From: an uncultured Alphaproteobacteria bacterium
GTDB taxonomy: Bacteria > Pseudomonadota > Alphaproteobacteria > CAAHEQ01 > UBA3637
Direction of reading: 5' to 3'
Assembly (NCBI GenBank): GCA_944391565.1
Contig: CALXUB010000021.1
Location: forward strand, 15,693 to 79,692
DNA: 64,000 nucleotides
Both the position numbers and the translations under genes were made by a program. A model generated the notes under the pieces. The model ran no database searches, was not told the origin of the DNA, and saw only the letters and a program-made list of their open reading frames with translations. Within the stretch, counting starts at the first letter, position 1, and each line of letters starts with the position of its first letter. Of the stretch, positions 3,470 through 51,880 are shown piece after piece.

Positions 3470-6061
3470 CTAAGCCAAAGCGCCATGGCAGTGTTTAAAC
3501 TTTTTACCGCTGCCGCAGGGGCATAAATCATTGCGACCGACTTTAGACAAGTCCACTTCCTTACCTTCCGGCGTTTTCACGGGTTCCGGTGGTGCCAACG
3601 TCAGTTGAGCATGTGACAAAACGACTGTCACCTGTTCCCGCACCCGACCCAACATCGCATCGAACAAAACAAAAGCCTCTCGTTTATATTCATTCAACGG
3701 ATCCCGCTGACCATAAGCTCGCCAGCCGATGGCTTTTTTCAAAAAATCCAATGATTGCAAATGTTCTTTCCACATTTGATCCAATGTTTGCAGCAGAATA
3801 CTCTTTTCCAATCCACGAACAAGCTGCGGATCGAAATCCTTATGTTTCTGCACGGCAATCTGATCAGCAACCTGCGCCGCACGCTCAGCCACAGCTTCAC
3901 CGGACAAGCCGTCCTTAACCCACTCTTGAATCGGCAAATCAACTGCCAGCAAACGCCTCAACTCTTGACGGAGCTTATCCAAGTCCCATTCGTCGGGATG
4001 TTGTTTAGACGGCATACAGGCGTCAATCGTTTCGGCAATCATTTCATCCCGCATTTCCTTACACATAGCGGAAACATCCGAAGACTGCATCAACTCGCGA
4101 CGCTGTTCATAAATAACATGCCGTTGATCATTCATGACATCGTCATATTTCAACAGGTTCTTACGCGCATCAAAGTGCATTTGCTCGACTTTTTCCTGCG
4201 CCTTTTGAATAGCTTTGGAAATCCAAGGATGAGAAATAACCTCGCCTTCTGGGATGCGGAATGTCCGTAAAATACCTTTCAATCGTTCTGAACCGAAAAT
4301 CCGCATCAGATCGTCTTCCAACGACACATAGAACTTAGAACGACCCGGGTCGCCCTGACGACCGGAACGTCCGCGCAGCTGATTATCGATCCGTCGATTT
4401 TCATGGCGTTCCGTTCCGATAACATAAAGCCCGCCTGCCTCCAAAGCGATTTTTTGACCTTCGGCGATTTCTGCTTTAACCCGCTCGATGATTTGAAGCC
4501 GCTCAGCCTCGTCTTCCACGCCGTTGAGTTCTTCCTGCAACCGCATTTCCAAATTACCGCCCAGCTTAATATCCGTTCCCCGACCGGCCATGTTGGTCGC
4601 AATCGTCACGGCACCCGGCGCCCCCGCTTGAGCCACGATTAAAGCTTCGCGTTCATGGTTTTTGGCATTTAAAACTTCAAAACGAATGTTTGTTTTCTTT
4701 TGCAAAACATCTGCCAAAGCCTCAGATTTCTCAATAGAGGTTGTCCCCACCAAAACCGGTTGTTTTTTGGCATGAGCTTCTTCGATTTCTTTGACAATCG
4801 CGTTGAATTTTTCTTTTTCAGTTGCGTAAATCTCATCCTGGCAATCTTCGCGCGCCACCGGTTGATTGGTCGGAATTTCAATCACCTGCAAACCGTAAGT
4901 GCTGTCAAACTCGCCCGATTCCGTCATAGCCGTTCCTGTCATACCCGACAGTTTCGGATACATCCGGAAGTAATTTTGGAACGTAATGGAGGCCAATGTT
5001 TGGTTTTCCGGTTGAATCGTCACATTTTCTTTGGCTTCCAAAGCCTGATGCAATCCGTCCGAATAACGGCGACCGGCCATCATGCGGCCCGTAAACTCAT
5101 CAATAATCACGACTTTGTCATCCCGAACGATATAATCCACATCACGCGTGAACATTTTGTGCGCCCGCAGTGCCTGCTCGACATAATGCACCAGCGAAGC
5201 ATTTTCCAAATCATACAGACTGCCCGTCGGCATCAGCCCGACATCCCGCAGCCAAGTTTCCACAGCGTCATTTCCGGCTTCTGTCAAAGCAATCTGGCGA
5301 TTTTTTTCGTCCTTTTCAAAATGTTCCGGCTTCAGGTTATACATGATTTTATCAACGGCTTTGTATTTTTCCGAAGAATCCTCGGCCGGTCCGGAAATAA
5401 TCAATGGTGTCCGTGCCTCATCAATCAGAATGCTGTCGACTTCATCAACGATTGCAAAAGCAAACGGCCGTTGCACCATGTCTTCCAATCGATAGCGCAT
5501 GTTGTCCCGCAAGTAATCAAAGCCGAACTCATTGTTTGTGCCATAAGTGACATCTGCAGCATAAGCGGCTTTACGTCCGGCCGTATCCAAATCATGATAC
5601 ACGCAACCGACCGTTAAACCCAAGAATCGATAAATCTGCCCCATCCATTCGGCATCGCGGCGAGCCAGGTAATCATTGACCGTGACGACATGAACGCCCT
5701 GACCGTTCAATGCATTCAAATAAACCGCCAAAGTGGCCACCAATGTTTTTCCCTCACCGGTTTTCATTTCGGCAATTTGTCCCCTGTGCAACACGATACC
5801 ACCGACCAATTGCACATCGAAATGGCGCTGTCCCAAAGTTCTTTTAGCCGCTTCACGCACCGTTGCGAAAGCTTCGACCAACAAATCGTCCAGCGTTTCC
5901 CCTTTGGCCAGACGTTCTTTAAACCAAGCCGTCCGCGCCTTTAACGCTTCGTCCGACAAGGCGGCCAGCTGGGGTTCCAACGCGTTGATTTCATCGACGG
6001 TTTTACGTAATTTTTTCACATATCTTTGATTGGCGGTGCCAAGCAGTTTTTTCAATAACAC
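3470..6061 (-). CDS. secA: Preprotein translocase ATPase SecA
   Basis: [38 protein letters not shown] and C-terminal SEC-C motif ([14 protein letters not shown]). Confidence 0.99.
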
Positions 6062-6167: not shown

Positions 6168-6635
6168 TTATTCTTTTATGATAACTCCTTCGAACAGTCT
6201 TTGAAACCAAGAGACCCGCCGTCCCAAAACAACGTCACATTTTTCCGGCATCAGCACTTTCACGTTTACAACCAAATCCTGATAGGAAGAGGCAGAATGC
6301 ATTAAATTGAACGGCGTCATCTGAGGATTACCGACGACATACCGTTCCCGCAGTTCTTTTTTGATTTGAGATGTTTTTTCAATAGCCTTTTCCCCATAAA
6401 GCAAATAAACATCCGTCGGATGCGCCAGATAAGTAAAAATAAAAACACGTTGCCAGGCTTCAGGCATTTGGTTTAAAACCGGTTGATACGTTCGCATCAT
6501 CTCTTCCGTCAGCCACATTTTTTTGTGATACTTAACCCGAAGTCCGGCCTTTTTGCACGTTTTTAAAATCATCTTTTTCATGCCCCGCCGATAAGCATCC
6601 GGTTTCAGCGAGATTAATGCATATTCTCCGTCCAT
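6168..6635 (-). CDS. Divergent nucleoside-diphosphate-kinase-like protein
   Basis: N-terminal LKPDA and C-terminal NLMHSAS (phospho-His motif NxxHxS); start overlaps the stop of the upstream Hint gene. Confidence 0.7.
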   Translation of the reverse strand: MDGEYALISLKPDAYRRGMKKMILKTCKKAGLRVKYHKKMWLTEEMMRTYQPVLNQMPEAWQRVFIFTYLAHPTDVYLLYGEKAIEKTSQIKKELRERYVVGNPQMTPFNLMHSASSYQDLVVNVKVLMPEKCDVVLGRRVSWFQRLFEGVIIKE

Positions 6636-8569
6636 CAGGCTGCCTTTCGAGAACGCCAGCGCTTATCAGAAGACATTAAACGCAAAACATAATCCTGCAC
6701 TGATTTGTCGCCGTGAAAATCAGCATTCGCACGGTTAATATCCAACGGCTGTTCGGTCAAACGCAGTCCGTCAATCCATTCCTGAGGCAACAACGGGAAA
6801 TCCTCCCGTTTACTGATCAAAAGACGATCTTTCACAAATTTCATATCGCGGATGAGATATAGATTATTCAACCGACAACTGGTTAAAATTCCGCTTGTAA
6901 AACAATTCAAATGATGTTTCGTCACAATGTTATAATACTTGACTTTTTCAGAGACAACCTCTTTAGAAACCAATCGGACCTTTCGACCGGCCGCGTTAAA
7001 AGTTGTTGTGCCGATAGGTGTTTCATCCGTCATGGGATAGGTAAAAGCACCGGCTTCTTGGTTGAAAAGACGATGTTGGTTAATTGTTTTCAAAACAGAA
7101 CCGTCATCAAAACAAAGCCGGTTATAAGCGTCAGCCTCCTGCTCTATTTTTATCCATAAAGGATATGCAGCGGCGAAACATCCGTTATCGAAATCCCAAA
7201 CTTTCAGCAAGTCTTCATAGTCCACATCTTCAATGTTTTTTACACGGCCGTCTGCCAAAGTCACTTGCGTTCCCGCCGCGCAACACCACCAACACCCACC
7301 ACTGACATCATGAGGAATATTCATATAATCAGCAAATTCAAAACGGCATTTTCCATCTGTGGTGCATGTGCCGTACAATCCACCTGCCATGCATTGAGTG
7401 CCTGAAGCGCAAGTGTAATGGCTTACTTCACTGATACACCAACAAGAACCGTTTTCACAGGTATAGCCCGTTGTATCATAACCGGGCGGAACCGTGCAGG
7501 TGGTTGGACAGGCTGCTCTGCAGCTTCCCATCGTCGTACCGCAAACCTCATCCGCACATTCGCAGACACCATTTGTCGCATGCGCCACGGTGCAACCGCT
7601 GATAACACAAGGTGTACATGTTCCTGCTCCGTTGCACAAACCGGTTTTGTTATCACAAGGTGTTGTTGCAGAAGCATAAGTATATTGGGCTGTTCCGTTT
7701 TGATTGGTGCAAGCCGTCACACAATCTGTCGCAACAAAATCATGGCAGGCATCCGTCACACATTGACCGTCGTTTGTGCAAACTTCCCCTGCTCCACAGG
7801 TTATTTGTTCTTTATCGGGACAACCGTTTGTGTAAGTCGGCGATAAACAAGTGGTTTCGACAGGTGTCAGACACGCACATCCATTCAAAGTCGCATTCAC
7901 GGTTTGGTTGTCGGCGCAAGGATGTGCACCGGTTGCGGAACAATAACAATTAGATGTGTTTTGACATAAGCCGCTGACAATCGCCTCCTCCTTTAAGCAG
8001 CCATCCGAACCGGCCACTAAGCGGGTGCAATCACCGGCTGACACAGATGGACACGTTGTCTCTCCGGGATCCGGGTCAGGTGTCGGATCGGGATCAGGGT
8101 CAGGTGTCGGTGTTGAAGAAGAAGATTTCCGCCATTGTTCATAGGCAAAAGAAAACACGATGTCTTGCGTGCCCTCCCCGCAGACCGTAGAACCATCTGC
8201 CAACGTCACAGATTTCAAAGGATAAGAAATGTCTTTCATGACCTGAAGACAGACTTTTTGAGGAATATCCTCCACCGTCACGTCAATCCCGCCGTTCGAC
8301 TGTTTGACAGAAAAAGTTTTGCCTGATTGGGGTTGAAAACTGGACGGAACCGTTTCTGATTTTGTATCCAACAACAAAAGTGATAACAGTTTCGCGTCTT
8401 CTAACACGGCATTGGCACGCTGTTTATTGATGGCAATCGAATAACCGGCAACACCGCCGGCCGTCAAAACACCCGCAACCGATAAGACCCCTAAAACTTC
8501 CAACATTGTGCGACCGGACACACCGGCATATAACGATTGTTTGGATAATGAACGAACGACCTGTTTCAT
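6635..8569 (-). CDS. Type IV pilin-like leader + Pro/Asp linker + Cys-rich repeats + C-terminal Hint (autoprocessing) domain protein
   Basis: G|RTMLEVLGVL prepilin-like site and hydrophobic helix; PTPDPDPDP linker; many Cys; Hint block A CCAAGTQVTLADG, block B KTINQH, terminal YYNIVT…GILTSC; strong SD AAGGAGGAGG before ATG 8569. Confidence 0.8.
   Translation of the reverse strand: MKQVVRSLSKQSLYAGVSGRTMLEVLGVLSVAGVLTAGGVAGYSIAINKQRANAVLEDAKLLSLLLLDTKSETVPSSFQPQSGKTFSVKQSNGGIDVTVEDIPQKVCLQVMKDISYPLKSVTLADGSTVCGEGTQDIVFSFAYEQWRKSSSSTPTPDPDPDPTPDPDPGETTCPSVSAGDCTRLVAGSDGCLKEEAIVSGLCQNTSNCYCSATGAHPCADNQTVNATLNGCACLTPVETTCLSPTYTNGCPDKEQITCGAGEVCTNDGQCVTDACHDFVATDCVTACTNQNGTAQYTYASATTPCDNKTGLCNGAGTCTPCVISGCTVAHATNGVCECADEVCGTTMGSCRAACPTTCTVPPGYDTTGYTCENGSCWCISEVSHYTCASGTQCMAGGLYGTCTTDGKCRFEFADYMNIPHDVSGGCWWCCAAGTQVTLADGRVKNIEDVDYEDLLKVWDFDNGCFAAAYPLWIKIEQEADAYNRLCFDDGSVLKTINQHRLFNQEAGAFTYPMTDETPIGTTTFNAAGRKVRLVSKEVVSEKVKYYNIVTKHHLNCFTSGILTSCRLNNLYLIRDMKFVKDRLLISKREDFPLLPQEWIDGLRLTEQPLDINRANADFHGDKSVQDYVLRLMSSDKRWRSRKAA
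8063..8112 (-). repeat. Low-complexity Pro-Asp/Pro-Thr linker repeat
   Basis: PTPDPDPDPTPDPDP encoded by imperfect tandem repeats. Confidence 0.8.
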
Positions 8570-8594: not shown

Positions 8595-9395
8595 TTATAA
8601 TTTTTCGGCAATTTTCAATGCATCAGAAGCCGCATCGGCATTCGGATAGCCGGACAAAATAGACGTTTGCGATCGAATGGCATCTCTGACATGCGCATCG
8701 CGGCGGATAATTCCGGCCAAATCCGGCGACAGCTTTAAAAATCCCTGACACGCTTTCAACAACGTCGCGTAAGTCCTTTCGCCTTCCCGCACATTATTCA
8801 CGGCATTCACCACAATACGAATATCCACATTCGGATTTTCGGAAGATATGATTTTAATAAAAGCGTAAGCATCCGTCAACGATGTCGGCTCATCCGTGCA
8901 AACCACCAACAATGTCCCGGCGTTTTGGGCAAACAACCGGACCGCTTTTTCAACACCGGCCCCCAAATCAATCACAACTTTGTCATACTGAGACGCCAAC
9001 AGTTGCAAATCATCAAAAATCAACTGCAAACGCGACAATGGAATATTCGCTAAGCTGCCCGACCCCGAACGACCGGCGACCACATCAAATCCCAAATCCG
9101 ATTTCATCACCGCTTGCGTCAACGGCACACGTCCCGTAATAACAGAACCTAAATCGTATTCCGCCACCAATCCTAATTGAATATCTACGTTTGCCAGTCC
9201 TAAATCACCGTCAAACAGCAATGTTTTTTCGCCGGCTTTAGCCAAAGCATGCGCCAATGTAATGGACAGCCATGTTTTACCCACGCCGCCTTTGCCGGAA
9301 GCAACGGCTATCATATTACGTCCTTTGACGGCGCCGGCCGGGCGCGGTGCCATCTGCAAGGTATCCGGTAAAGTCAAAATGCGTGAAATATTCAT
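8595..9395 (-). CDS. flhG: MinD/ParA-family ATPase FlhG (FleN)
   Basis: Deviant Walker A GKGGVGKT, DGDLGLANVD, EPTSLTDAYA; follows flhF with an ATGA overlap. Confidence 0.88.
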   Translation of the reverse strand: MNISRILTLPDTLQMAPRPAGAVKGRNMIAVASGKGGVGKTWLSITLAHALAKAGEKTLLFDGDLGLANVDIQLGLVAEYDLGSVITGRVPLTQAVMKSDLGFDVVAGRSGSGSLANIPLSRLQLIFDDLQLLASQYDKVVIDLGAGVEKAVRLFAQNAGTLLVVCTDEPTSLTDAYAFIKIISSENPNVDIRIVVNAVNNVREGERTYATLLKACQGFLKLSPDLAGIIRRDAHVRDAIRSQTSILSGYPNADAASDALKIAEKL

Positions 9396-10348
9396 GATAA
9401 CCCCTCTTCTTTCAATAAAATCAATTCCGCCAAAGCCTTGGGCGTCAACGGACACAAGCCTTCGGAAACATGCGGGCTGATTCCCACATCCGACAAACTT
9501 AACCCGTTGTTTTGGGCCGCAAATAACAAACTGCCGATGCGGCGCGATAAATCCAACCGCGTTGCCAAAATCCGTTTACATCCCAGCGTCAAAAAAGCCT
9601 CCGCCATTTCTGCCGTTTCAAAAGCATCCCCGCCGGCCGAAAGAACCAAAACAGGCTCCAACCCGTCAATATCGGCTTTCAATTCGGCCAAATAAGCCAT
9701 ATCCGTTTTTAAAAACGGATTGACCCCCGGGCTGTCAATCAAAACCAAATCACTTGTTTGACGCAGACTTTCGACGGCTGTTTTCAAAAAAGCCGGTTTA
9801 CGGATTTTCACTAAATCCAACTCTAAAATTTTGGTAAAAGCCTCCAACTGTTCAATCGCGCCGGCCCGTTTTATATCGGTTGTGACTACGCCGACTTTTT
9901 TACCGGCCATTTTAGCCTTGACCGCCATTTTGGCGACCGCAATCGTCTTGCCGCACCCCGACGGTCCCGTCAGCATAAACGCCCGTCTGGAGCTTGTCGC
10001 CGGCAAGGGCATAAAGTGAAAAGTCCGCTCCAACGCATGTGTCAACAATTCTTTAGCCTCCCGTCCCGGTGCCTGTTCGGCGCCGATCAGCAACCGATCC
10101 ATTAAAATCTCGGGTACTCTGTGAGCCGCCAAAGCCGCCCGAATCACACGCAGCACTTGTTCTTCCTTAGGCCCGAACAAAGCTTCTTCAATTTCCGCTT
10201 CCGAGACTTTTTCAGGCGCTCCGACCGTCACACGCACACCGTCCGAAACATGCTGGTTTGACAAAATCAACGCGTCCGGTCCGAAATCTCTTCGAATGGC
10301 TTCCATTGCTTCGGCAAGACAAGAGGCCGCGTAGGTTTTGATTTTCAT
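9392..10348 (-). CDS. flhF: SRP-family GTPase FlhF (short B-domain)
   Basis: N-terminal MKIKTY…AMEAIRRDFGPDALILS; GPSGCGKT, DIKRAGA, DSPG and TRLD GTPase motifs. Confidence 0.88.
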   Translation of the reverse strand: MKIKTYAASCLAEAMEAIRRDFGPDALILSNQHVSDGVRVTVGAPEKVSEAEIEEALFGPKEEQVLRVIRAALAAHRVPEILMDRLLIGAEQAPGREAKELLTHALERTFHFMPLPATSSRRAFMLTGPSGCGKTIAVAKMAVKAKMAGKKVGVVTTDIKRAGAIEQLEAFTKILELDLVKIRKPAFLKTAVESLRQTSDLVLIDSPGVNPFLKTDMAYLAELKADIDGLEPVLVLSAGGDAFETAEMAEAFLTLGCKRILATRLDLSRRIGSLLFAAQNNGLSLSDVGISPHVSEGLCPLTPKALAELILLKEEGLS

Positions 10349-10354
10349 CGCACG

Positions 10355-11158
10355 TTATTCCTCAAACAAGTGCAACTGCTGATCCGCCGGCAAAACGCTG
10401 TTCAATTCAATTTCCGTTCGTCTGGGATTTTCGGCGGCATCAATGGCCGCAAGCCCCACCAGACACAACTGAGCCAATTGTTGTTCCTGCTGAGCATCTC
10501 GCTCCAGCTTTGTTGCCAGCGGCAGAAAAACGACATACGCCAACAAAGCCCCATAAAAAGTCGTGATAATGGCGATCGACATGCTGGGACCGATGGTCGT
10601 CGGATCCGACAGGGTCGACAGCATTTGAACCAATCCGATCAACGTGCCGATCAACCCCATTGCCGGTGCGATTTCACCGGCTTTGTTCAATACGGCAACC
10701 GCATTCATTTTGGCAGCCAAATCACTGTGCATACGACGGGTCATAACCTCTTGACATTCTTTACCGCTCATCCCGTCGATTAAATAGGAAACCCCCAAGC
10801 TGAGAAACGGAATGCGCCGCACGTCTGCCGCATAACTTTTTTGAAGCGATAACACACCGCTTGCATGCGCAATTTCCGAACCGCGCATAATCCAGGCGGC
10901 CACACTTTCTAAACTTTGCTCCCGCCGAAACAGCGTTTTAAAAATCACAACAAAGCTTTGCACGATTTCCGGCAAAGAAAAACTGGCAACACAAGCAAAC
11001 AATGTGCCGCCCAAGACAATCAAAGCCGACGGCCCGTTTAAAAACGAAGCAAGCGATCCATTCAAAAAAATCGCAATGCCGATAAATAAAAAAGCTCCCG
11101 TCAGTCCGATTAAAACAGACGGATCAAAAAATCGAGAAACACTGTCTGTCTTGCGCAT
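10355..11158 (-). CDS. motA: Flagellar stator A subunit MotA/PomA
   Basis: Four TM segments; SALIVLGGT, APAMGLIGTLIGLVQML and TTFYGALLA motifs. Confidence 0.9.
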   Translation of the reverse strand: MRKTDSVSRFFDPSVLIGLTGAFLFIGIAIFLNGSLASFLNGPSALIVLGGTLFACVASFSLPEIVQSFVVIFKTLFRREQSLESVAAWIMRGSEIAHASGVLSLQKSYAADVRRIPFLSLGVSYLIDGMSGKECQEVMTRRMHSDLAAKMNAVAVLNKAGEIAPAMGLIGTLIGLVQMLSTLSDPTTIGPSMSIAIITTFYGALLAYVVFLPLATKLERDAQQEQQLAQLCLVGLAAIDAAENPRRTEIELNSVLPADQQLHLFEE

Positions 11159-11167
11159 ATCCGCTCC

Positions 11168-11485
11168 TTATGATTTGACGATTTCCGTCATGGTAATACC
11201 CAATCGATCCCCTTGTTGCACCAACTCGCCCCGCGCGATTAAATGATTATTGACATAAATATCCACACTGTCCCCCACTTGTTTATCCAGCTCTAAAATC
11301 GAACCGGGACCCATTTTCAACAACTGGCTGACCGTTAACGTTGTTTTTCCCAAAACCGCCGTCACCTGAACGGGAATGTCATACAAAGGTTCCATCCCGC
11401 CATCAGCTTCGTTCACGGCAGTCTTACCGCTTTGCAGTGTTCGTTCGGCCATTTTTAAAAATTCAGCTTTTTGTTTTTCGTTCAT
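11168..11485 (-). CDS. fliN: Flagellar motor switch protein FliN
   Basis: SPOA domain: DIPVQVTAVLG…LLKMGPGSILELDK…IARGELV. Confidence 0.92.
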   Translation of the reverse strand: MNEKQKAEFLKMAERTLQSGKTAVNEADGGMEPLYDIPVQVTAVLGKTTLTVSQLLKMGPGSILELDKQVGDSVDIYVNNHLIARGELVQQGDRLGITMTEIVKS

Positions 11486-11488
11486 AGT

Positions 11489-12505
11489 TCATCCTATCAT
11501 TTCTTCAACTTCGCCCGTCCCCGGGATTTCAATATCCCCGCGCAGGGCCATTTGTTTAATTAAACTGACAATCTCGGCCTGAGCGGCATCCACATCGCGC
11601 AAACGAACGGCTCCCAAAGCTTCAATATCCTCGTTCAGCATCACGCGTGCCCGCTCCGACATATTGCGGAAAATAACAGTCTTAACCTGTTCGGAAGCAC
11701 CTTTCAAGGCCAAAGCCACTTTGCCCCGAGCCACAGCCCTCAGCACCGTTTGAATGGTTTTGTCATCCAAACGCACCAAATCTTCAAACGTAAACATCAG
11801 CGAACGGATATGTTCGGCAACTTCGCGGTTGCGTTCAAACAAACTTGTCATCAGTCGATTTTCCGTCGTCCGATCCAGATGATTAAAAATCTCGGCCACG
11901 CGAACGGTGGAATCTTGAACATCTTGGTTTGTCAAACCTGTCATAAAATCAGTTTTCAATGTTTGTTCAATACTGTCCAATACGTCTTTTTGCACTGTTT
12001 CCAACCGCAACAGCCGCATAATAACATCCATCACGAAATTTTCGGGCAAATAAGCCAACACTTTGGCAGCATGCTCGGACGACAAGCGCGACAAAATCAC
12101 TGCCACCGTCTGAGGATACTCATTTTGCAGATAATGCGCCAACACTTCCTCGTTCACGTTTTCCAGCTTATCCCACATTGTTCTGCCTGCCGGTCCCCGA
12201 ATTTCATTCAGAATGTTTTTATGGCGCGCGGCCGGTAAAACTTTTGCCAAGAGTTTTTCAGTTCCTTCAAACGTGCCGACCAGCGTTGACGGCGCTTTCA
12301 TGTTTTGTGCAAAAGCTTTTAACACCTGTTCCACCAAATGCGCATCAATAACGCCCAGACTGGCCATGGCGATAGAGATTTCCCGCACCTCCTCATCATC
12401 CATTTGTAAGAAAATCTTTTTGATATACTTTTCCCCCATCGCCAACAGGAAAATCGCCGCTTTTTGTGTCCCCGTCAACGCGTTGAATGTCAGTGTCTCA
12501 GCCAT
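11489..12505 (-). CDS. fliG: Flagellar rotor/switch protein FliG
   Basis: QKAAIFLL, EYPQTVA (EHPQ motif), MFTFEDL and NMSERA torque helix. Confidence 0.96.
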   Translation of the reverse strand: MAETLTFNALTGTQKAAIFLLAMGEKYIKKIFLQMDDEEVREISIAMASLGVIDAHLVEQVLKAFAQNMKAPSTLVGTFEGTEKLLAKVLPAARHKNILNEIRGPAGRTMWDKLENVNEEVLAHYLQNEYPQTVAVILSRLSSEHAAKVLAYLPENFVMDVIMRLLRLETVQKDVLDSIEQTLKTDFMTGLTNQDVQDSTVRVAEIFNHLDRTTENRLMTSLFERNREVAEHIRSLMFTFEDLVRLDDKTIQTVLRAVARGKVALALKGASEQVKTVIFRNMSERARVMLNEDIEALGAVRLRDVDAAQAEIVSLIKQMALRGDIEIPGTGEVEEMIG

Positions 12506-13454
12506 TCTGCGCCTCCTCCGGCGACACGGTTTGATACAACCAACCGCGTAAAACCGTCACGGCGTCATCCGTCTGGGTGTCAATCAGCTCATGCGCCTGA
12601 GCCAATGCGTTTTCGGAAACAGTGCCTTTAATTTGGGAAGAAGAGGTTGTTTCCGATAACACCGACGGATTGACGAAAGCCGGCATCGGCTGCGGCGGCA
12701 ACGACGCGTTTTCCGGTTCCGACCGCACCGGCGTGAAACTTTTGATGACGACAAGCAGAAAAGCCAACACCAAAACAATCGACAAGAAAATGAACTCAGC
12801 GATCCGCACCCAGTCCTTATCCAGCGGCGAAGAAGACGGAACGGCGTTAAAAGACGCCTGCACGACTTCTAACGTGTCTCCCCGTTCTTCATCCAAACCG
12901 GCGGCCTGTGTCAGCAGCGTTTCGATTTTTTCGCGCATGCCCGGCGTCAAACTTGTTTCATCCACCAAAGCGGCTACTCGGATTTTTTGAATAACGCCGC
13001 CGTTTTGAATAAAGCGAATATTTTGTTTTGAAAAAGCATATTGTGTTTCTTCACGGCCCAGACCCGTCTTTTGGGAAGAAATGACAGGCATGTCCGTATC
13101 CAAAATCTCACGATTGGTCTGCTGTTGCGAAAAATCAATATCCGCCCGAACAGTCACATCAGCGCGACCTTTTCCCACAATTCTTTCCAACATTTGGGTC
13201 AACTCTTCCGCCAACCGCGCTTCATAGTCACGCCGAACCGTCTCATACTGCGCCAGGGAAGAAGGCGGCAAAACATCATCGGCCGTGGCGGAAATATCTA
13301 CGATTTCCTCCGAATGAGACAAACGAGCCGACGGTTTGCTTTTGGATTGCGCGTAAAAAGACAGGAAAAAGAGAACCATTGCCGTCAGCACAAAGGCCGC
13401 CAGCAAAAGCTTGCCCAACGACTTCAGTCCTTGACTTTTAAACGTAAATGTCAT
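12498..13454 (-). CDS. fliF: Truncated FliF-like MS-ring protein (TM1 + RBM3/short beta-collar + TM2 + FliG-binding tail)
   Basis: YEARL…MLERIVGKGRADVTVRADIDF, IQKIRVAALVD, AAGLDEERGDTLEV, C-terminal VLRGWL; only 318 aa with no RBM1/RBM2 sequence. Confidence 0.8.
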   Translation of the reverse strand: MTFTFKSQGLKSLGKLLLAAFVLTAMVLFFLSFYAQSKSKPSARLSHSEEIVDISATADDVLPPSSLAQYETVRRDYEARLAEELTQMLERIVGKGRADVTVRADIDFSQQQTNREILDTDMPVISSQKTGLGREETQYAFSKQNIRFIQNGGVIQKIRVAALVDETSLTPGMREKIETLLTQAAGLDEERGDTLEVVQASFNAVPSSSPLDKDWVRIAEFIFLSIVLVLAFLLVVIKSFTPVRSEPENASLPPQPMPAFVNPSVLSETTSSSQIKGTVSENALAQAHELIDTQTDDAVTVLRGWLYQTVSPEEAQNG

Positions 13455-13562
13455 TCATTATCCTCTTCTTCCCAAAAGGTTTCCCTTTCATTATGGGTTA
13501 AGAAAGTGAATTTTTCGTTAACAGTGCTTTCTTTTTCAGGCGCAGCGTGCTATCATGCACGT

Positions 13563-14492
13563 ATGACAGAAACAAAATTGACAACAGCGCCGGTCGGCGC
13601 AGAAAATAAGGGAATGCGGCTGGATAAGTTCCTCAGCCTTCATTTGCCGTTGTCGCGTTCGCGGATTGCAACTCTGATTGCGCAGGGATGTGTTGTTCCC
13701 CCGCTTGCGGCTGACACCAAAGTGACGCCGGGACAAATCTTTACGGTTTGTGTTCCCGAAGCAAAAGAAGCCGTTCCGAAACCCCAGCCGATGGCTTTGG
13801 ATATTTTATACGAAGATAACGATTTGATTGTCATTAACAAACCGGCAGGTCTGGTTGTGCATCCGGGGGCCGGCAATACAGACGGCACGCTTGTCAATGC
13901 ATTGTTGGCACATTGCCCCGACAGCTTATCGGGCATCGGCGGCGTTAAACGCCCGGGCATCGTTCATCGCATTGACAAAGAAACAAGCGGAGTTTTGGTC
14001 ATTGCCAAAAATGATTTTGCACATCAAAAGCTGTCGGAACAATTCGCCGGCCATAGCATTAATCGCATTTACCTGGCCGTCGTTTATGGTCTGCCTGCCG
14101 GCGAAGGACGCATTGAAGGCAATATCGGCCGCAGTCCTCATAATCGTCAAAAAATGGCCATTGTTTCACAAGGCGGTAAACCGGCCGTCACCCATTATCG
14201 ATTGTTGCAAAACTTATTCCGGGGACGGGCCGCCCTTATTGAATGCCGACTTGAAACCGGACGCACGCACCAAATTCGCGTGCATATGACATCTGTTAAA
14301 CATCCGCTGGTCGGCGATAAAACCTATGGCAGTCCGCCAAAAGGAGCTCCTGAAATACTACGGCATTTTCCGCGGCAAGCACTGCATGCGGCGGTTTTGG
14401 ATTTTATTCATCCGCGAACGGGAGAAACACTGCATTTTTCAACACCGTTGCCCGAAGATATGGCAGTGTTGGTTCAAAACGGAAAAGATTAA
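13563..14492 (+). CDS. rluD: RluA/RluD-family 23S rRNA pseudouridine synthase
   Basis: S4 domain (RLDKFL), NKPAGLVVHP, HRIDKETSG and GRTHQIRVH; true start is ATG 13563. Confidence 0.92.
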   Translation: MTETKLTTAPVGAENKGMRLDKFLSLHLPLSRSRIATLIAQGCVVPPLAADTKVTPGQIFTVCVPEAKEAVPKPQPMALDILYEDNDLIVINKPAGLVVHPGAGNTDGTLVNALLAHCPDSLSGIGGVKRPGIVHRIDKETSGVLVIAKNDFAHQKLSEQFAGHSINRIYLAVVYGLPAGEGRIEGNIGRSPHNRQKMAIVSQGGKPAVTHYRLLQNLFRGRAALIECRLETGRTHQIRVHMTSVKHPLVGDKTYGSPPKGAPEILRHFPRQALHAAVLDFIHPRTGETLHFSTPLPEDMAVLVQNGKD

Positions 14493-39873: not shown

Positions 39874-40482
39874 CTAATTATTACGTTCCATTGAATTAAG
39901 CAATATTTTCATACGGTTCTGCTCTAAGAGATTTTGTTGCTCCATAAATTTATCAATCGCATTTTGAACATCTTGGACTGTCTGGCAAATACAAATGCTC
40001 TTTTTTGCAGCAATCCGATCTTTTTCTGACGGATTAAATAAAATATTCAGAAAAGTAATCCCTTTTTCGTCTGCATCAGGATATAGATCAGATAAACGAT
40101 CACCGATTAAAACGCATCTGGAAACATCTTTCGTACCGACTTTTTTTTCATAATCACCAAACATTCCTCTATCAGTTTTTTCCGAGTGCATCACAGAATC
40201 AAGATTCTGACCAAAAAATTCCAAAAGTTCAATGTATGTTTCAGTACCATTTGCCAATGAAATAATGGTATTTTTGAAACCATAGCGTTCTTTAACATTT
40301 TTTAGCATATCGAACATACTGTGATTGTAATACCTGTCAAAATACCTGTCAAATCCGACACCACTAGCTCGATAAGGCTCCTTGTCTGCCGCAGGCCTTG
40401 ATTTGACAATATCCAAATCTTGGGCTTTGTACATCCATAATGTCCCTTCTAAATCAATAAGTAAAACATTTTTATTTTCCAT
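39874..40482 (-). CDS. HAD-superfamily hydrolase-like protein
   Basis: Motif I variant LIDLEGT and motif IV IGDRLSD. Confidence 0.65.
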   Translation of the reverse strand: MENKNVLLIDLEGTLWMYKAQDLDIVKSRPAADKEPYRASGVGFDRYFDRYYNHSMFDMLKNVKERYGFKNTIISLANGTETYIELLEFFGQNLDSVMHSEKTDRGMFGDYEKKVGTKDVSRCVLIGDRLSDLYPDADEKGITFLNILFNPSEKDRIAAKKSICICQTVQDVQNAIDKFMEQQNLLEQNRMKILLNSMERNN

Positions 40483-40536
40483 TTTATTCTCCTTTAATAT
40501 CAATATATTATATCACAAAACTAAAATAAATTGTTA

Positions 40537-41700
40537 TTATTCTTTCTGGTTTTCTTTTATATTTTGCGACAGCGCTTTTTTGTGTGTAGCCACTTTACAT
40601 GGCATTTCTTTGCCGTATTTTTCATGAATCTTTAAAAGCGCCAACCGTGTTTCGCCGTCTATATACCTTGCGTCCAGAATCATCATCTGAATGCTGTCCG
40701 ACTTGCAGCCGTTTTGAAGCAGAACTTTAAGCATTGCTGCATTGCCGTTTTCGCATGCCATTTTAATTGTTTCTTCTGGCTTAGAAATTTGAAGACCTTT
40801 TGAAAACGCCCAGCTCATTAACGAAGCCTTGTCAGATTCGACAATCGCTTCTGTCAACGGATATTTTTTTGTTTTTATATCCGCTCCATGGTCGACAAGA
40901 ACTTCCGCGACCTTTTTATCACCTTTTTTCAAGGTCTGCCACAACAGCCAGTCTTTTATATCATCGCCTCTTTCAAAACGTTTGACTTTCCGCACGGCTT
41001 TAAAATCATAGCCTTTTTCTATAGCTTTATTTAAAACGGCCAAAGATGGAGCCTCTATAAAATCAGCTTTTGCGCCTTTGTCGAGTAAGAACAATTTCAT
41101 CTTGTCACTGGCGATGGAAAATAAGGTAAACGTATTACCATCATAATCACCCCAATGATACCAATCTAAGTCAATCTCATATTTTGATTTATCCAAAATC
41201 AGCTGTAATAATTCAGGAGAATCTTTTTTGATGACACGTGCCATGACAGGCTTTTGACGCCAGGCATCACCCACGTTATACTGACAAGTAAAGTTCGGAT
41301 TAGCGCCATTTTCAAGCAAATAGGAAACGCTCTCAGGAGACCAAGTTTCACCCTCAAAACCAATCTCGTCACCAAGCAGATTCATTTCCAATTCCGTTTT
41401 TGTCCAGTCAATGCAATACGGTTCCTTTTCCAAAAAGTATTCAAAAATCTTTTTATGACCTCTATAGGCACGACGAACGGAGACGGCTGAAATTGGCGTG
41501 CCGGCTTCTACTAAAATTTGAGCGGCCTCTAAGTTGTCTTGGTCAATCGCTTCATACAAAGGACTTTCCTTTTCAAACTCCTTGCCACATCCGCATCGAC
41601 ACGTAAAATAATCCGGTTTAATGTGTTTAGGATTTTTCGCCAGCTTGCGAAGTTTGTCCATATCGTTATGTTTAATGGCTGAAATCACATTATAATTCAT
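40537..41700 (-). CDS. Ankyrin-repeat protein
   Basis: SPLYEAI…LVEAG, LLENGANPN, LLDKGAK, LVDHGADI and LLQNGC repeats. Confidence 0.85.
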   Translation of the reverse strand: MNYNVISAIKHNDMDKLRKLAKNPKHIKPDYFTCRCGCGKEFEKESPLYEAIDQDNLEAAQILVEAGTPISAVSVRRAYRGHKKIFEYFLEKEPYCIDWTKTELEMNLLGDEIGFEGETWSPESVSYLLENGANPNFTCQYNVGDAWRQKPVMARVIKKDSPELLQLILDKSKYEIDLDWYHWGDYDGNTFTLFSIASDKMKLFLLDKGAKADFIEAPSLAVLNKAIEKGYDFKAVRKVKRFERGDDIKDWLLWQTLKKGDKKVAEVLVDHGADIKTKKYPLTEAIVESDKASLMSWAFSKGLQISKPEETIKMACENGNAAMLKVLLQNGCKSDSIQMMILDARYIDGETRLALLKIHEKYGKEMPCKVATHKKALSQNIKENQKE

Positions 41701-41702
41701 TT

Positions 41703-42437
41703 TTATTCTCCTTTCTCGTTTTTGTTAATGTTTTGAACTTGGACATCTTTGTGCGATGCGATTTTACGAACGGCAAACAAAGTTTTAAAGGCTTCATTTG
41801 CACTCCGACCTGCTACCGCCAAATTTTTGTTTTTAAAGGCTTTAATCTCGGTCACGTCTTTTGCCTCAGCTCCAAAGTATTCCGGTAACTGATAAGCATT
41901 GGCCTCTTCGATACTTTCAAACTCCACTTCAACAGAGGCAAAATCAAAGCCCATTTGCTCGTCATAAATATCGACTTCCAAAACATGCGTGCCGTCGTTG
42001 ATTTTAAAGCGCTCTTTTTTCACAAATCCAACTGCTTGTTTTTTAAAGGCCATTGCTTGTTCCGCCGAAATTTCAAACTCTTCTTCAAAGCGCATTAAAT
42101 CACCTTTTCCCTTAATCGTCAGGACAAATTTTTCGTTCCCATAATTGCGATAACGAATTTCCATATCGTTCAAACCGTCAGCAGCGATATAACCCGCAAA
42201 ATTGTGAATGACTGTATCGACAATGATATAGTCCGCAACATTGCGAATGACTTCATCAGAAACTTGAATTTTCTGCCCAGCACAATAGATGGATTTATAT
42301 CCGATCGTGAGCTCTGCTTTTTTTGGGTCTAAATAGCCTTGCTCCAAAGCTATCACCTCATGCGCTTTTTGTGCCAATACCTTTCGGTCAATTTTGGATT
42401 TAGGCATCACCCATTTTTTTTCGATTTCTTTTCCCAT
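41703..42437 (-). CDS. CYTH-domain (triphosphate tunnel metalloenzyme) protein
   Basis: EIEKKW (ExExK), EQGYL, RYR…LTIKG, RFEEEFEI and EVEF motifs. Confidence 0.88.
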   Translation of the reverse strand: MGKEIEKKWVMPKSKIDRKVLAQKAHEVIALEQGYLDPKKAELTIGYKSIYCAGQKIQVSDEVIRNVADYIIVDTVIHNFAGYIAADGLNDMEIRYRNYGNEKFVLTIKGKGDLMRFEEEFEISAEQAMAFKKQAVGFVKKERFKINDGTHVLEVDIYDEQMGFDFASVEVEFESIEEANAYQLPEYFGAEAKDVTEIKAFKNKNLAVAGRSANEAFKTLFAVRKIASHKDVQVQNINKNEKGE

Positions 42438-42438
42438 T

Positions 42439-43185
42439 TTATTCCTCTCTTTCATGTTGTTGGTTAATGTTGATTGGATAGTCTTTATGGCAGGCGACAA
42501 AACGCACAGCAGCTTTTTGTTCTGCCTCACAAACTTTGCCTTCAATCACTAAATCGGCAAATTCTTTGTTCGGTATGATGTACTTTGAAGCGGCTTTTGA
42601 TACAATCTCAAATTGCTTTTTCATTTGAAGCGGATCTTGATTACGCGTGATGGCTCTTTCTTGATAGCGCTTCCATTGAACGGCTTTATCGATTGATAAG
42701 TAAATTTTCAAGTCAAATAAATCCCGAACTTCTGGATATAACGTACAAATGCTTTCAACAAACACTATTTTTGAGGGCCGACAGTGTATGGCTTTTGCTT
42801 TTGACGAACCATCCCGCATTTCGTAATAAGGAGTATCAATCGTTCGCCCAGACCTCAAGGCTTTTAAATCCGAGGATAACAAATCCATTTGAAAGTTTTG
42901 AGAACTTTCTGTTTCATATCCACTTTCCACCAGTTTTGTAAAAGAGCCAACCTCCGAAATTCGATCAGAAATGTCACAAAAGTAATTGTCCGCACTGATA
43001 ACAGACATCTGAGGAACTTTGTCCTTCAAAGCATTCAACAAGGTTGTTTTTCCCGATGCACTTTCTCCACATAAAGCGACTAAAATGACATCTTGTTGCT
43101 TCATCAGCTTGGCTAATTTTTGTTTAATGGCAGGTGTTGATTGCAAAACATTTGCATGTTGTAAAATTGCATCAATTAAATTCAT
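42439..43185 (-). CDS. Uridine kinase/phosphoribulokinase-family P-loop kinase
   Basis: GESASGKTT, DNYF, PYYE, DLFDLKIYL and YIIPNKEFAD motifs. Confidence 0.85.
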   Translation of the reverse strand: MNLIDAILQHANVLQSTPAIKQKLAKLMKQQDVILVALCGESASGKTTLLNALKDKVPQMSVISADNYFCDISDRISEVGSFTKLVESGYETESSQNFQMDLLSSDLKALRSGRTIDTPYYEMRDGSSKAKAIHCRPSKIVFVESICTLYPEVRDLFDLKIYLSIDKAVQWKRYQERAITRNQDPLQMKKQFEIVSKAASKYIIPNKEFADLVIEGKVCEAEQKAAVRFVACHKDYPININQQHEREE

Positions 43186-43197
43186 TTTTTAACTCCT

Positions 43198-43260
43198 TTA
43201 TAAAGCTGCTAAAACTAAAGCGATGGGTACTAAAATTACAAAATCAATTAAATCTCTCAT
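43198..43260 (-). CDS. 20-aa hydrophobic peptide MRDLIDFVILVPIALVLAAL
   Basis: Strong SD AAGGAGG; its stop overlaps the SD of the kinase gene. Confidence 0.5.
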   Translation of the reverse strand: MRDLIDFVILVPIALVLAAL

Positions 43261-43378
43261 TTTTGCCTCCTTTATTCTCGTACAAGTTCTCTTTTTTCAA
43301 TCAACTTCAAAAGTTCTTTTCTTTTTGATACTTGTTTTTTTCCTTTTAAACCGCCGATCAATTCGCTCAAGATGAAAA

Positions 43379-43501
43379 TTAGCTTTCCAGTTCTTTTAGT
43401 TTTAAACGCCTTTTTTCCTTTCTGCTTTCTTCTTCACTAAGGAATAATTCATAGACCCACTCTTCAAGTTCAAAGAAAACGCCTTTTCCCAAATGTTCCA
43501 T
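43379..43501 (-). CDS. 40-aa charged peptide (MEHLGKGVFFELEEW…)
   Basis: Strong SD AAGGAGGAG; first ORF after an AT-rich promoter region. Confidence 0.45.
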   Translation of the reverse strand: MEHLGKGVFFELEEWVYELFLSEEESRKEKRRLKLKELES

Positions 43502-43725
43502 TTTCTCCTCCTTTTTGTTTTGCCCGGAAACTATTTCCTTGCTTACATCTTTAATTTAACACAAAAAATAAACACAATGAATATAAAATACATAGTTTTA
43601 TATTAAAATATGTGTTTTAAATTGTTTATAAAATATAAAATATGTAAAATAAATAAATGAGATATAAAAAAAGCATCCGAATTTGGATGCAAGAAGGGTA
43701 AAAAGAGATTAAAAAAGCGAATCGG

Positions 43726-44430
43726 TTACAAATTGTTCCAAATGAAATCGAATTGTTTCCGTGCTGTTTCTGCCGTTTGTTCGTGCGTTATAATCATAAT
43801 ACGAAAAGGCGTTTCAAAAAATAAATATGCCAACCGATCCTTATAAATAATGCTGGGCATGAGCGGCAGTCCTTTGACATTTGCCAAACGTTTTTCACCG
43901 CCAACGAAGGTAATCCCCGCATCTTGTTTAGGATAGCAAAGCGTCTTCACACGAATACCTTGATTTTTTGTAATTTTCTGTTGAAAAGCAGCAACATCTG
44001 ATTTACCAATTTGAAGCAGTTTGTTTTCGTCAATTCCGCAAAGCAGCAATTCTCCGCCTTCTTTATCCATAACATGAATGATGTTACGCAATAGCTGCAG
44101 CAAAGTACTTGCCCCTTCCAAAACTTTGACACGAAAGAAAGCATTTTCAATCCGCACGCCCGGACCATCAATAAACTGCACACCGCTTAGTTCGAATGTT
44201 TGCTGAATATCTGATATTGTATCCGTTCTGGCACTCGCGATGCCACGTTCAATATTATTGATTGCAGGCAAGGAATATCCTGATTTTTTGGCCAAATCCG
44301 CTTGTGACCAACCTAATAAAGCGCGTGCCGCTTTAATCTGCTCTGGGGCCAATGTTGGCAGAGAATTTAAATCTCGAACCAAAGTAATGTTTTTCTCTGA
44401 AATATATTCTTCTTTTTGTTTTTGAGCCAT
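43726..44430 (-). CDS. XRE-family HTH regulator with a C-terminal sensor-like domain
   Basis: QIKAARALLGWSQADLA…INNIERG; hairpin GCATCC…GGATGC downstream. Confidence 0.88.
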   Translation of the reverse strand: MAQKQKEEYISEKNITLVRDLNSLPTLAPEQIKAARALLGWSQADLAKKSGYSLPAINNIERGIASARTDTISDIQQTFELSGVQFIDGPGVRIENAFFRVKVLEGASTLLQLLRNIIHVMDKEGGELLLCGIDENKLLQIGKSDVAAFQQKITKNQGIRVKTLCYPKQDAGITFVGGEKRLANVKGLPLMPSIIYKDRLAYLFFETPFRIMIITHEQTAETARKQFDFIWNNL

Positions 44431-44539
44431 TTTCGTTTCCTTTTACTCAAAAGAATAATCCATCTTTCCAACTAAATCAATATAAAATACTTGCAAAAAC
44501 TATATAAAATGCATAAAATGAGCAAAAAGGGAACAAAAA

Positions 44540-45391
44540 ATGGATTATAACAAGGTTCAAACAATTATTGATATCTTACAAAACAGTTTGATTGTGGAAG
44601 CTGTACGTCCTACATTAAAAGATAAATTGCTGAGTGCTGATTTAAGCGAACCTAAATTAATTGCAATTTCTGGAGAAAGTGCCTCTGGAAAATCTGCTTT
44701 AATGAATACGATTAAACAGTACTTACCAAATGCAACTTATTTATCAACTGATAATTACTTTAAAGATTTTTCAGACGGCATTGCCTTGCATGGTTCGTTT
44801 GATGCAATGCTTGCTGCTGGGTATGCGATGCAAGCACCGTACAGCATTCATTTAGATATTTTAAGACAGAATTTACTTGATCTAAAAAACGGCAAAGACG
44901 TCAAAATTCCTCACCATTTATTGGACGGTTCAGGTAAAACAATTTTAAATGCCATTCCGGTAAAATCATCCAAGATTGTTTTTGTCGACGGATTTTGCAC
45001 ACTTTATGATGAAGTCCGTGATTTGTTTGATTTTGCTATTTATTTAGAAGTAGAAAGCTCTGTTCAGAAAAAAGCTTTCTTTGAGCTATCAGCTGACCGA
45101 AAAGCAACAGAAGAACAAACAAAACGAATTTTCAAAATCTTATCCGTTAGTTCTGAGATTTATATCAAACCAACCAAAGAATTTGCTGACGTTGTATTAA
45201 ATTTATTGAATGACGAACCACAGCAATCCGTTTTAGTTAAAGATGTTATTTCCTGTCTGAGTGGCCATCAAGTACAAGCTGAAACCTTGACACAAAAACT
45301 GATTCACCCAAGTGGTGACTTAGCTCTTCTCTGGCATTCTCTTTCTCCCACACTTCAAAAAGAAATTCTAAAAGAGTTGGATGGAAAGTAG
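44540..45391 (+). CDS. Second uridine kinase-family P-loop kinase
   Basis: GESASGKS, DNYFKD, TLYDEVRDLFD and YIKPTKEFAD; clear paralog of 42439..43185. Confidence 0.85.
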   Translation: MDYNKVQTIIDILQNSLIVEAVRPTLKDKLLSADLSEPKLIAISGESASGKSALMNTIKQYLPNATYLSTDNYFKDFSDGIALHGSFDAMLAAGYAMQAPYSIHLDILRQNLLDLKNGKDVKIPHHLLDGSGKTILNAIPVKSSKIVFVDGFCTLYDEVRDLFDFAIYLEVESSVQKKAFFELSADRKATEEQTKRIFKILSVSSEIYIKPTKEFADVVLNLLNDEPQQSVLVKDVISCLSGHQVQAETLTQKLIHPSGDLALLWHSLSPTLQKEILKELDGK

Positions 45392-45754
45392 TTAAATAAA
45401 ATAACTCTTTTGCTTAAATAACTTTTATTAATGTTTTATCATTAAAAAATTTTTCTTAAAATTTAGTTGCGCCTTATTTTGCAAGAATATTAAAAAATTA
45501 GAGTATGCAATAGGCAGAATCAAGTTAAAATATAGAAACCACTTAAAAACTGTACAAATACCATCGTTAGAAAATCAAGACATCTGATTTTCAAAGCGAG
45601 GCGGAAAAACGTGTCATTTATAGACTATTATTTGATGCCTATGACTTCTGTGCATTAGTAATATTAAATTAAAATCAGTCACAAACTTGCATTTGCAAAT
45701 GTTACATATTAGTTTAGTATAAGCAAAATTAATTTGATGTTAAGGTAAGATAGA

Positions 45755-46294: not shown

Positions 46295-46443
46295 ATATCT
46301 ATCATAACTTCACTGTCTCAACACCTACAAGTTAGCAACCGATCAAAACCTGCTGTTTAACCATTTTTACTTCATCAGCGATTTTATTAAATCTGAGGTA
46401 AATTTTTGAAACTATTGTGTTGGACCATCGTATTAACACACTT

Positions 46444-48416: not shown

Positions 48417-48417
48417 T

Positions 48418-49896: not shown

Positions 49897-49937
49897 TCAT
49901 GCCATTCGTTGACATCTAATCCAACACACCAAAACCA

Positions 49938-50000: not shown

Positions 50001-50078
50001 TTTCAAACAGTACTTTTTGCTTGTAATAAGAAAAAACATCAGATATGATATAGTATATTGTTTTAAAAAAGGATAAAA

Positions 50079-51867: not shown

Positions 51868-51880
51868 AATAATTTTGTAC

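Follow-up and report, generated by a model that had tools for sequence, protein, structure and literature searches.

A flagellar rotor, stator and placement gene set kept without export genes in a family of uncultured Alphaproteobacteria: a candidate polar complex with a role other than motility

What does a flagellar motor operon do in a bacterium whose genome holds no recognisable export gate, rod, hook or filament gene? The question is raised by a stretch of 64,000 nt (here called the window) from the genome of an uncultured alphaproteobacterium, which spans 1.27 Mb in 37 contigs and is 94% complete. Within positions 8595 to 13454 of the window, on the minus strand, are packed six intact motor genes, fliF*-fliG-fliN-motA-flhF-flhG, where fliF* stands for a short form of fliF. 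As a rule, the flagellar motor cannot be separated from type III export, and the MS ring is taken as built around the export gate, to hold the rod. According to our analysis, the loss of the export genes is family-wide and old, and the six genes evolve under purifying selection. The reading towards which we lean, with somewhat better than even confidence, is that they are the remnant of an alphaproteobacterial polar motor and encode an export-less, axle-less polar rotor-stator complex selected for a job other than motility.

Open reading frames (ORFs) and Pfam matches define the content of the operon, all of it on the minus strand. The gene fliF* (12498 to 13454) encodes 318 aa with a sole Pfam match, to PF08345 YscJ_FliF_C (6.4e-22). 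It is followed by fliG (11489 to 12505), encoding the rotor protein with the Pfam domains FliG_N, FliG_M and FliG_C, and by fliN (11168 to 11485), encoding a C-ring protein of 105 aa that is likewise identified by Pfam. The gene motA (10355 to 11158) encodes a short stator subunit of the PomA/MotP type (267 aa; PF01618), flhF (9392 to 10348) a GTPase of the SRP type, probably FlhF, serving placement at the pole (318 aa; PF00448 SRP54 GTPase domain, 6e-24), and flhG (8595 to 9395) a MinD/ParA-type ATPase of 266 aa with CbiA, AAA_31 and ParA matches. We place the start of flhG at the conserved ATG at 9395 (MNISRIL), which yields 266 aa and not the 286 aa of the ORF at 8595 to 9455. The genes fliF* and fliG overlap by 8 nt, the gaps from fliG to fliN, from fliN to motA and from motA to flhF measure 3, 9 and 6 nt, and the flhF stop and the flhG start overlap in ATGA, so that the six intact, tightly packed genes described in the initial annotation are borne out, with gaps of 3 to 9 nt or small overlaps. 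FlhG carries the deviant Walker A motif KGGVGKT and has a MinD-like fold, and its gene adjoins flhF. The best NCBIfam match of FlhF is to TIGR03499 FlhF, at 134.9 bits (cut-off, 174.15), and its gene occupies the ancestral flhF position; the best match of MotA is to PomA, at 181 bits (cut-off, 341).

The short FliF deserves closer inspection. Its transmembrane (TM) helices lie at residues 16 to 34 and 218 to 236, and a profile of nine short FliFs, aligned to PDB sequences, places positions 64 to 104 on residues 240 to 280 of Salmonella FliF and positions 121 to 299 on residues 360 to 559. According to this alignment, RBM1 and RBM2 are missing and about 80 collar residues are swapped for about 16. 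FliF-type features are present in the form of the pair of TM helices, of RBM3 and, at the C-terminus, of a tail for FliG binding, whose tryptophan W305 is identical in 9/9 short FliF sequences. The full RBM1-RBM2-RBM3 arrangement of the FliF equivalog TIGR00206 (about 550 aa) is not present, and the protein scores 39.5 bits against its cut-off of 129.75. In Salmonella FliF, residues 228 to 270 and 382 to 438 constitute RBM3 and residues 271 to 381 the collar, which form a 34-mer S ring, and RBM2 builds a ring of 23 subunits whose hole accommodates the export gate (PMC8270960). By this correspondence, FliF* has lost precisely the portion in which the export gate is held, and it retains the S-ring domain, a short remainder of the collar, the TM helices and the tail. 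PF01514, which covers RBM1 and RBM2, has zero matches in the whole genome, and neither a separate RBM1/2 gene nor a full-length FliF was found there, so that the genes whose discovery was to speak against the repurposed module did not turn up. The anatomy initially proposed for the 318-aa protein, with both TM helices, a short-collared RBM3, the tail and no RBM1 or RBM2, agrees with the isolated PF08345 match and with the PDB profile alignment. The solved FliF fragment 9yh6 can be aligned along the entire RBM3 region with only a few gaps, and the compact collar is therefore not unique to FliF*. Two further proteins, P0134 and P0155 (338 and 329 aa), are short and FliF-like, with PF08345 alone at near-full model coverage; they score far under the short FliFs of the family, and another lineage may have short FliFs as well.

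When we inspected the genome of the window for the rest of a flagellum, FlhA (PF00771), FliP (PF00813), flagellin (PF00669) and the rod/hook domain (PF06429) gave no match. When 47 flagellar and chemotaxis proteins of E. coli were used as tblastn queries against the same genome, five queries only had specific matches, namely FliF, FliG, FliM, FliN and MotA. For FliI, FliA, CheY, CheB, CheR and CheA the hits were confined to generic genes for ATPase subunits, sigma factors, receivers, methyltransferases or kinases, and none was found for FlhA, FlhB, FliO/P/Q/R, FliE, FliH, FliJ, FlgB-L, FliC or FliD, FlgJ aside, for which a single match of 37 residues was obtained (E 0.008). The view of a filament-less module put forward in the initial annotation holds as far as flhA, fliP, rod/hook and flagellin genes are concerned; it has to be widened by fliL, fliM and motB, which are present on a second contig, C33. 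The rotor and switch proteins FliF, FliG, FliM and FliN and the stator proteins MotA and MotB all have Pfam matches above the cut-offs.

The cluster on contig C33, absent from the initial annotation, reads fliL-fliM-DUF6468-FlbB-like-MotB-like-motB-TPR. It includes an FlbB/MgtE_N-like protein, an OmpA-like (MotB-like) protein and a TPR protein of 672 aa. MotB (201 aa) matches MotB_plug at 46 bits. Its MotB-like neighbour (211 aa) has a weak OmpA match of 19.8 bits, under the cut-off, and no Asp in its TM segment; homologues of the latter in six genomes (G007, G015, G024, G041, G043 and G044) weakly match MotB_plug positions 18 to 58. The two MotB-like genes lie side by side (genome G000, contig C33; L003:9873-11110), are conserved in four genera and are lost together with motA. 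A possibility is that the MotB bearing the Asp and the OmpA-like MotB-like protein pair up in a heterodimeric stator stalk. The DUF6468, FlbB-like, MotB-like/OmpA-like and TPR proteins each have an N-terminal hydrophobic segment and are co-inherited with fliM and motB. The order lpxC / DUF4167 ... TPR / relA is conserved around the cluster, which is kept in the clade where fliF* and fliG are separate genes (the unfused clade, discussed below), with pN/pS values of its genes between 0.1 and 0.32.

The absences extend to the family, of which we surveyed 80 species genomes from 16 genera, 0.7 to 2.0 Mb in size; the order comprises solely this family. FlhA was found in 0/80 of these genomes, and in 0/63 in an order-level search, flagellin in 0/56 of those at least 90% complete, and MinC in 0/80. 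The rod/hook domain was found in 1/80, a genome without FliG. This sole match (G009:C29:717-851) lies in a 137-aa frame of a genome with 3% contamination and is probably foreign DNA. The FlhA, rod/hook and flagellin searches detected their targets as positive controls in four flagellated reference genomes. FliG_C, instead, is present in 64/80 genomes from 13/16 genera, in a frame that is stop-free in 63/64 cases; the stop-to-stop frames measure 574 to 654 aa (32 matches), 352 to 369 aa (13) and 390 to 474 aa (13), the remaining six being of other sizes or truncated. FliM (PF02154) was detected in 17/80 genomes and the MotB plug in 12/80, both within genera having unfused FliF*. Related public records are titled uncultured Alphaproteobacteria, one of them from yak rumen. 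The operon is also carried by record L020, whose title reads 'uncultured Lactobacillales bacterium'; this record falls inside the family in the SecA tree described below, and its label is probably wrong.

Where the operon comes from can be seen by comparison with flagellated members of the same class, which have a full-length FliF. In one of them (L083) the genes run fliF-fliG-gap-fliN-motA-gap-flhA-flhF-flhG, in agreement with the ancestral order given in the initial annotation. The surviving genes have the same order and orientation in the polar motor operon of flagellated Alphaproteobacteria, whose fliL-fliM...motB cluster is also retained here, and the proteins of the window are 49 to 56% (FliG), 55 to 65% (FliN) and 42 to 54% (FlhG, compared with the product of the gene after flhF) identical to those of same-class flagellated genomes. 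Unlike in those genomes, there is no flhA and nothing in the positions of fliH and flbD. Read in this way, the window operon is the ancestral operon minus fliH, flbD, flhA and the 5' half of fliF. The removal of just the export-related parts, with no pseudogene debris, is as first described.

The operon is flanked by a divergent rluD-like gene (about 13563 to 14492, plus strand) and by secA (3470 to 6061), and the order rluD / fliF* fliG fliN motA flhF flhG / secA recurs in all eight related loci, one of which is without motA (L017 ends at a contig end, so that rluD is not visible there). Between rluD and secA, the window and L016 to L022 have all six genes, and L023 has the six minus motA; the L023/L075 lineage has lost motA, motB and the MotB-like gene altogether. 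In other genera, the same slot holds a natural FliF*-FliG fusion. The fusion is accompanied by fliN, flhF and flhG in L061, L062 and L066, by flhF and flhG in L064, L067 and L068, and by a short FlhG-like remnant in L065 and L069, and it stands alone in L063 and L070. Such fusions, like the stepwise reduction of the slot, had not been foreseen in the initial annotation; they occur in 10/10 loci fetched from genera g2, g3, g4, g7, g10, g15 and g16. Pfam confirmed YscJ_FliF_C and FliG_N/M/C in one frame for three of the fusions and for P0126, and P0022 is a more compact fusion with merely a faint trace of FliG_N. The natural fusions show FliF* and FliG to work as a single unit. In a SecA tree of 15 family rows (secA inside the fetched loci; L062, L063, L066 and L070 were left out, having no secA in the stretch) and E. 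coli, the unfused clade (support, 100/99) is set apart from the fused clade (98/95), with E. coli in between. The two clades place the truncation of FliF and the loss of export before the last common ancestor of the family, and the fusion arose once in the sample of the tree.

Is this gene set merely decaying? We estimated ratios of nonsynonymous to synonymous substitution (dN/dS) by the Nei-Gojobori method for the non-saturated pairs, L018-L021 for all genes and L016-L017 for all but fliF. For these two pairs, respectively, the values were 0.034 and 0.025 for fliG, 0.031 and 0.016 for fliN, 0.016 and 0.045 for motA, 0.045 and 0.044 for flhF, 0.038 and 0.032 for flhG, and 0.027 and 0.062 for secA; fliF* gave 0.17 (L018-L021 only). 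Thus, fliG, fliN, motA, flhF and flhG are constrained about as strongly as secA, and the values near 1 that would accompany simple decay are not observed anywhere in the operon (0.016 to 0.17). Between genera, FlhG is 75 to 81% identical, compared with 72 to 76% for SecA in the same loci. The fusion genes may be under constraint too, the only sign of it being frames that stay open across dozens of genomes.

Signs of coupling between rotor and stator are found at the level of single residues, which were placed by aligning the proteins to sequences of E. coli or of the PDB; for FliG and for MotA (R90/E98, equal to PomA R88/E96; P173; P222) the lists and the numbering of functional residues are those of the literature. 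The FliG of the window keeps the motif E-Y-P-Q...R, equivalent to EHPQR. The residues of the torque ridge, K264, R281, D/E288, D289 and R297 in E. coli positions, are kept in the 6 aligned sequences from motA-bearing genomes (K, R, E, D and R in the window), with the exception of R281Q in L020. The ridge is scrambled in 11/11 sequences from genomes without motA, namely the 10 fusions and L023, where the acidic pair and most other charges are lost. The stator-facing charges of FliG are thus kept only in genomes that keep MotA and MotB. The proton-binding Asp of MotB (in FTDL; equivalent to E. coli D32 in the TM helix) is invariant in 6/6 sequences, and so are the equivalents of MotA P173 and P222 (6/6). 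MotA also has the four TM segments of MotA/PomA stator subunits.

The N-terminal EEIDALL motif of FliM is invariant in 6/7 sequences, although the genome of the window contains no methyl-accepting chemotaxis protein (MCP) and no CheW. In other bacteria FlhG binds this N-terminal motif of FliM. An input from chemotaxis was considered and set aside, since MCP and CheW are missing and the CheY-like matches are a DivK-like single-domain regulator and a CtrA-like regulator (names given by eye); the conserved FliM EIDAL motif is hence not explained by chemotaxis. Immediately upstream of the window there is, nevertheless, a gene for a CheR-like methyltransferase (G000:C21:14082-15005), which shares 26% identity with E. 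coli CheR across 254 residues.

Upstream of fliF*, a conserved promoter element of 16 nt, TTAAC-N-AAAAATTCAC (13506 to 13521, minus strand), is followed by a -10-like hexamer, CATAAT (13490 to 13495, minus strand). The element is present in 7/7 upstream regions from several genera, despite diverged flanks, and is unique in the genome. It resembles the CtrA box, TTAA-N7-TTAA, with one mismatch. The genome encodes a CtrA-like regulator (G000:C4:3022-3783), with a perfect TTAA-N7-TTAAC box just upstream of its gene, and the DivK-like single-domain regulator (C29:3868-4230), which suggests that an alphaproteobacterial cell-cycle circuit is retained in the 1.27-Mb genome. Four GGDEF proteins are also encoded, as is a full-length MipZ (303.9 bits).

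In the reading that we favour, FlhF would deliver FliF* to the polar membrane, and FlhG would control that step. RBM3 of FliF* would build a ring consisting of the S ring only, the C-terminal tail would recruit FliG, and FliM and FliN would complete the C ring. Stator units of MotA and MotB, together with FliL, would then engage the torque helix of FliG and conduct protons. Having no export gate, rod, hook or filament, such a complex could not swim. The gene content, the absences across the family, the purifying selection, the natural fusions and the tie between FliG charges and the presence of a stator are shown by the data; we infer that a ring forms, that it lies at the pole and that it rotates or is energised, as well as what its output would be. 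The first of these inferences is plausible in light of the natural fusions and, by analogy, of a finding in Vibrio, where engineered FliF-FliG fusions are efficient at making MS rings and the formation of rings is promoted by FliG or FlhF (PMC10941966). The job of the complex would most likely be polar organising or signalling, tied to FlhF/FlhG and to the cell cycle, with stator engagement mattering in the window's clade; it may act as a landmark or in mechanosensing. Stator-dependent sensing is known in Caulobacter.

The absence of MinC and a precedent from Campylobacter jejuni are offered in support of the polar role. In that species, the block on polar division requires FlhF, FlhG, FliF, FliM and FliN, and it requires neither components of the T3SS (type III secretion system) nor FliE nor sigma-54 (PMC3228812). 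The parts required there are the parts kept here, the rod is dispensable there, and the Min system is missing in both. Unlike this lineage, C. jejuni builds complete flagella; fliG mattered little there (PMC3228812), yet it is the most persistent gene here, and MipZ in the genome of the window is a further difference. FlhG as the sole MinD-like positioning system was considered on the ground of the family-wide lack of MinC and rejected because of the full-length MipZ, but we keep it as one possible output.

Several observations weigh against the favoured reading. All of the genomes are metagenome bins, and none of the six proteins reaches its NCBIfam equivalog cut-off, FliF being a case in point. 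The charged pair of MotA is replaced, PomA R88/E96 having become H98/Q106 in the window and, in other genera, Y and Q or R, with only R/K93 and E96 conserved nearby, so that the sequences do not demonstrate torque generation of the classical electrostatic kind. MotB is without an OmpA or other peptidoglycan-binding domain recognisable by Pfam. With MipZ present, division placement is already served, and a role of the Campylobacter type is not needed on that ground; the stator would call for an additional explanation besides. The fusion proteins are 37 to 42% identical within a genus and their substitutions are saturated, which makes dN/dS uninformative for them. Finally, the stepwise erosion of the module in the sister clade would also fit the very slow loss of a dispensable part.

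These observations leave room for a static polar scaffold, in which a non-rotating ring of FliF*, FliG, FliM and FliN would serve with FlhF and FlhG as a landmark, and MotA and MotB would be accessory anchors or in the course of being lost. We hold it to be possible, though not likely. The persistence of FliF*-FliG as the core everywhere, with motA and motB in just 12/80 genomes, fits this explanation, as do the altered charged pair of MotA and a MotB in which no peptidoglycan-binding domain is detectable. It would also fit FlhG being the most conserved protein of the operon, the lack of MinC, and the precedent of C. jejuni, which needs no stator (PMC3228812). Against it stand the lowest dN/dS of the operon, that of motA (0.016 to 0.045), the invariant MotB Asp and MotA prolines, the retention of FliL, FliG torque-ridge charges that track the presence of the stator exactly, and a MipZ that already covers division placement.

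At the other end stands a bolder reading, which we regard as doubtful: a proton-driven rotor without an axle, found throughout the order, might act as a free-spinning or load-sensing polar ring for intracellular signalling or organising, or might drive an undiscovered periplasmic structure, and would have been pared down to a FliF-FliG fusion ring in the sister clade. If true, nature would here provide the first case of a flagellar torque generator uncoupled from both secretion and motility.

A new rotary organelle, whose rotor would turn and drive a periplasmic or surface output via new partners of the FliF* S ring, is in our opinion improbable. Candidates for such partners are at hand in the DUF6468, FlbB-like, MotB-like/OmpA-like and 672-aa TPR proteins conserved with fliM and motB; stator, rotor and FliL are all constrained, and the accessory genes are partly lost along with the stator in L075. 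On the other hand, no axle-like or surface protein was identified, the accessory genes could be ordinary flagellar genes of Alphaproteobacteria, and the collar of FliF* is shortened, not elaborated.

Very improbable, in turn, is a functionless relic whose genes have merely not been deleted so far. The stepwise shrinking of the gene set across the family, the fast divergence of the fusion proteins and the 16/80 genomes without a FliG match could be taken in its favour. A relic would not be expected to show dN/dS on par with secA or intact FliG frames in 63/64 cases, nor to keep its gene order, tight spacing and promoter element; moreover, FliF was truncated and export was lost before the two SecA clades split, so that the frames have remained open for as long as the family has been diverging, in genomes of 0.7 to 2.0 Mb. 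An ordinary flagellum, with its remaining genes missing from incomplete draft bins, such as the 94% complete genome of the window, or too divergent to be detected, is hardly credible in view of the family-wide lack of FlhA, flagellin and rod/hook genes in searches with positive controls, of the disappearance of fliH, flbD and flhA from inside a collinear operon with remaining gaps of 3 to 9 nt, and of a FliF that is itself without the domains described as housing the export gate (PMC8270960).

The genes downstream of the operon call for a separate comment. The next gene (6635 to 8569, minus strand) begins 25 nt past flhG, with the ribosome-binding site AAGGAGGAGG in between, and encodes 644 aa with a prepilin-like leader recognised by eye, a Cys-rich middle, a Pro/Asp/Thr linker and a weakly Hint-like C-terminal part (PF05203, E 0.021, over 25 residues). 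It is followed by a gene (6168 to 6635, minus strand) for an NDK-like protein of 155 aa (27.5 bits against a cut-off of 27). The initial annotation had let the operon continue into this pilin-Hint and NDK-like pair; the 25-nt distance is as it stated, but among the eight loci compared the two genes occur only in L016 and L017, which belong to the window's own genus, in a slot between flhG and secA that is variable and holds unrelated genes in other genera (in L022, one that is ankyrin-repeat-like by eye). They are genus-specific cargo, outside the conserved module, and the pilus-linked role suggested at first has been abandoned on this account, the Hint match being weak besides. The genome contains two T2SSE-type ATPases elsewhere. 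Between L016 and L017, synonymous divergence is 0.07 for secA, 0.27 to 0.30 for the pilin-Hint and NDK-like genes and 0.6 to 1.25 for the motor genes, which suggests a recombination mosaic within the genus. Farther along the window, positions 40000 to 52000 are low in GC (30 to 38%, against 44 to 49% elsewhere) and encode an ankyrin-repeat protein (40537 to 41700), two proteins of the uridine-kinase/PRK family, a CYTH-domain protein and a helix-turn-helix (HTH) regulator. Two tRNA genes lie at 52687 to 53138. The low-GC stretch may be an island with host-interaction genes.

Other systems resemble parts of what is described here. Buchnera-type insect endosymbionts (PMC8109811) also have a partial flagellar apparatus in a small genome without motility, and the present family is their inverse, keeping rotor, switch, stator and placement proteins and having lost the export machinery. 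Buchnera itself has kept the type III export machinery along with the basal body. Engineered FliF-FliG fusions of Salmonella and Vibrio likewise unite the MS-ring protein and FliG in one polypeptide, and those of Salmonella gave flagellated, motile cells according to PMC10941966; unlike them, the fusions of this family are natural and clade-wide, contain a FliF devoid of RBM1 and RBM2, and occur in genomes without a flagellum. In the literature that we found on FliF-FliG fusions, only engineered constructs or their structures are described, and searches on the lineage and on natural fusions retrieved no description of such a system, supplementary tables being outside their scope (PMC12199754 and PMC13063649 might list such genomes). 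The N-terminal TM helix and RBM of FliF* bear a weak likeness to the sporulation ring protein SpoIIIAG (TIGR02830, 1.6e-5; PDB 5wc3, E 0.0088), which the S ring is said to resemble (PMC8270960). Unlike SpoIIIAG, FliF* has a second TM helix, a FliG-binding tail and flagellar neighbours, and it is clearly derived from FliF.

The family thus offers a natural dissection of the flagellum, in which rotor, switch, stator and placement proteins persist over family-level time without export or axial parts, and in which FliF is cut down to the single domain of which the 34-mer S ring is made. The minimal FliF and the natural FliF-FliG fusions would be useful for structural studies, and the successive reduction steps reveal which parts depend on which, the FliG charges going with MotA and MotB, and the PF02154 match of FliM with an unfused FliF*. 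For the organisms themselves, these genes point to a polar structure in uncultured bacteria of the gut and the rumen.

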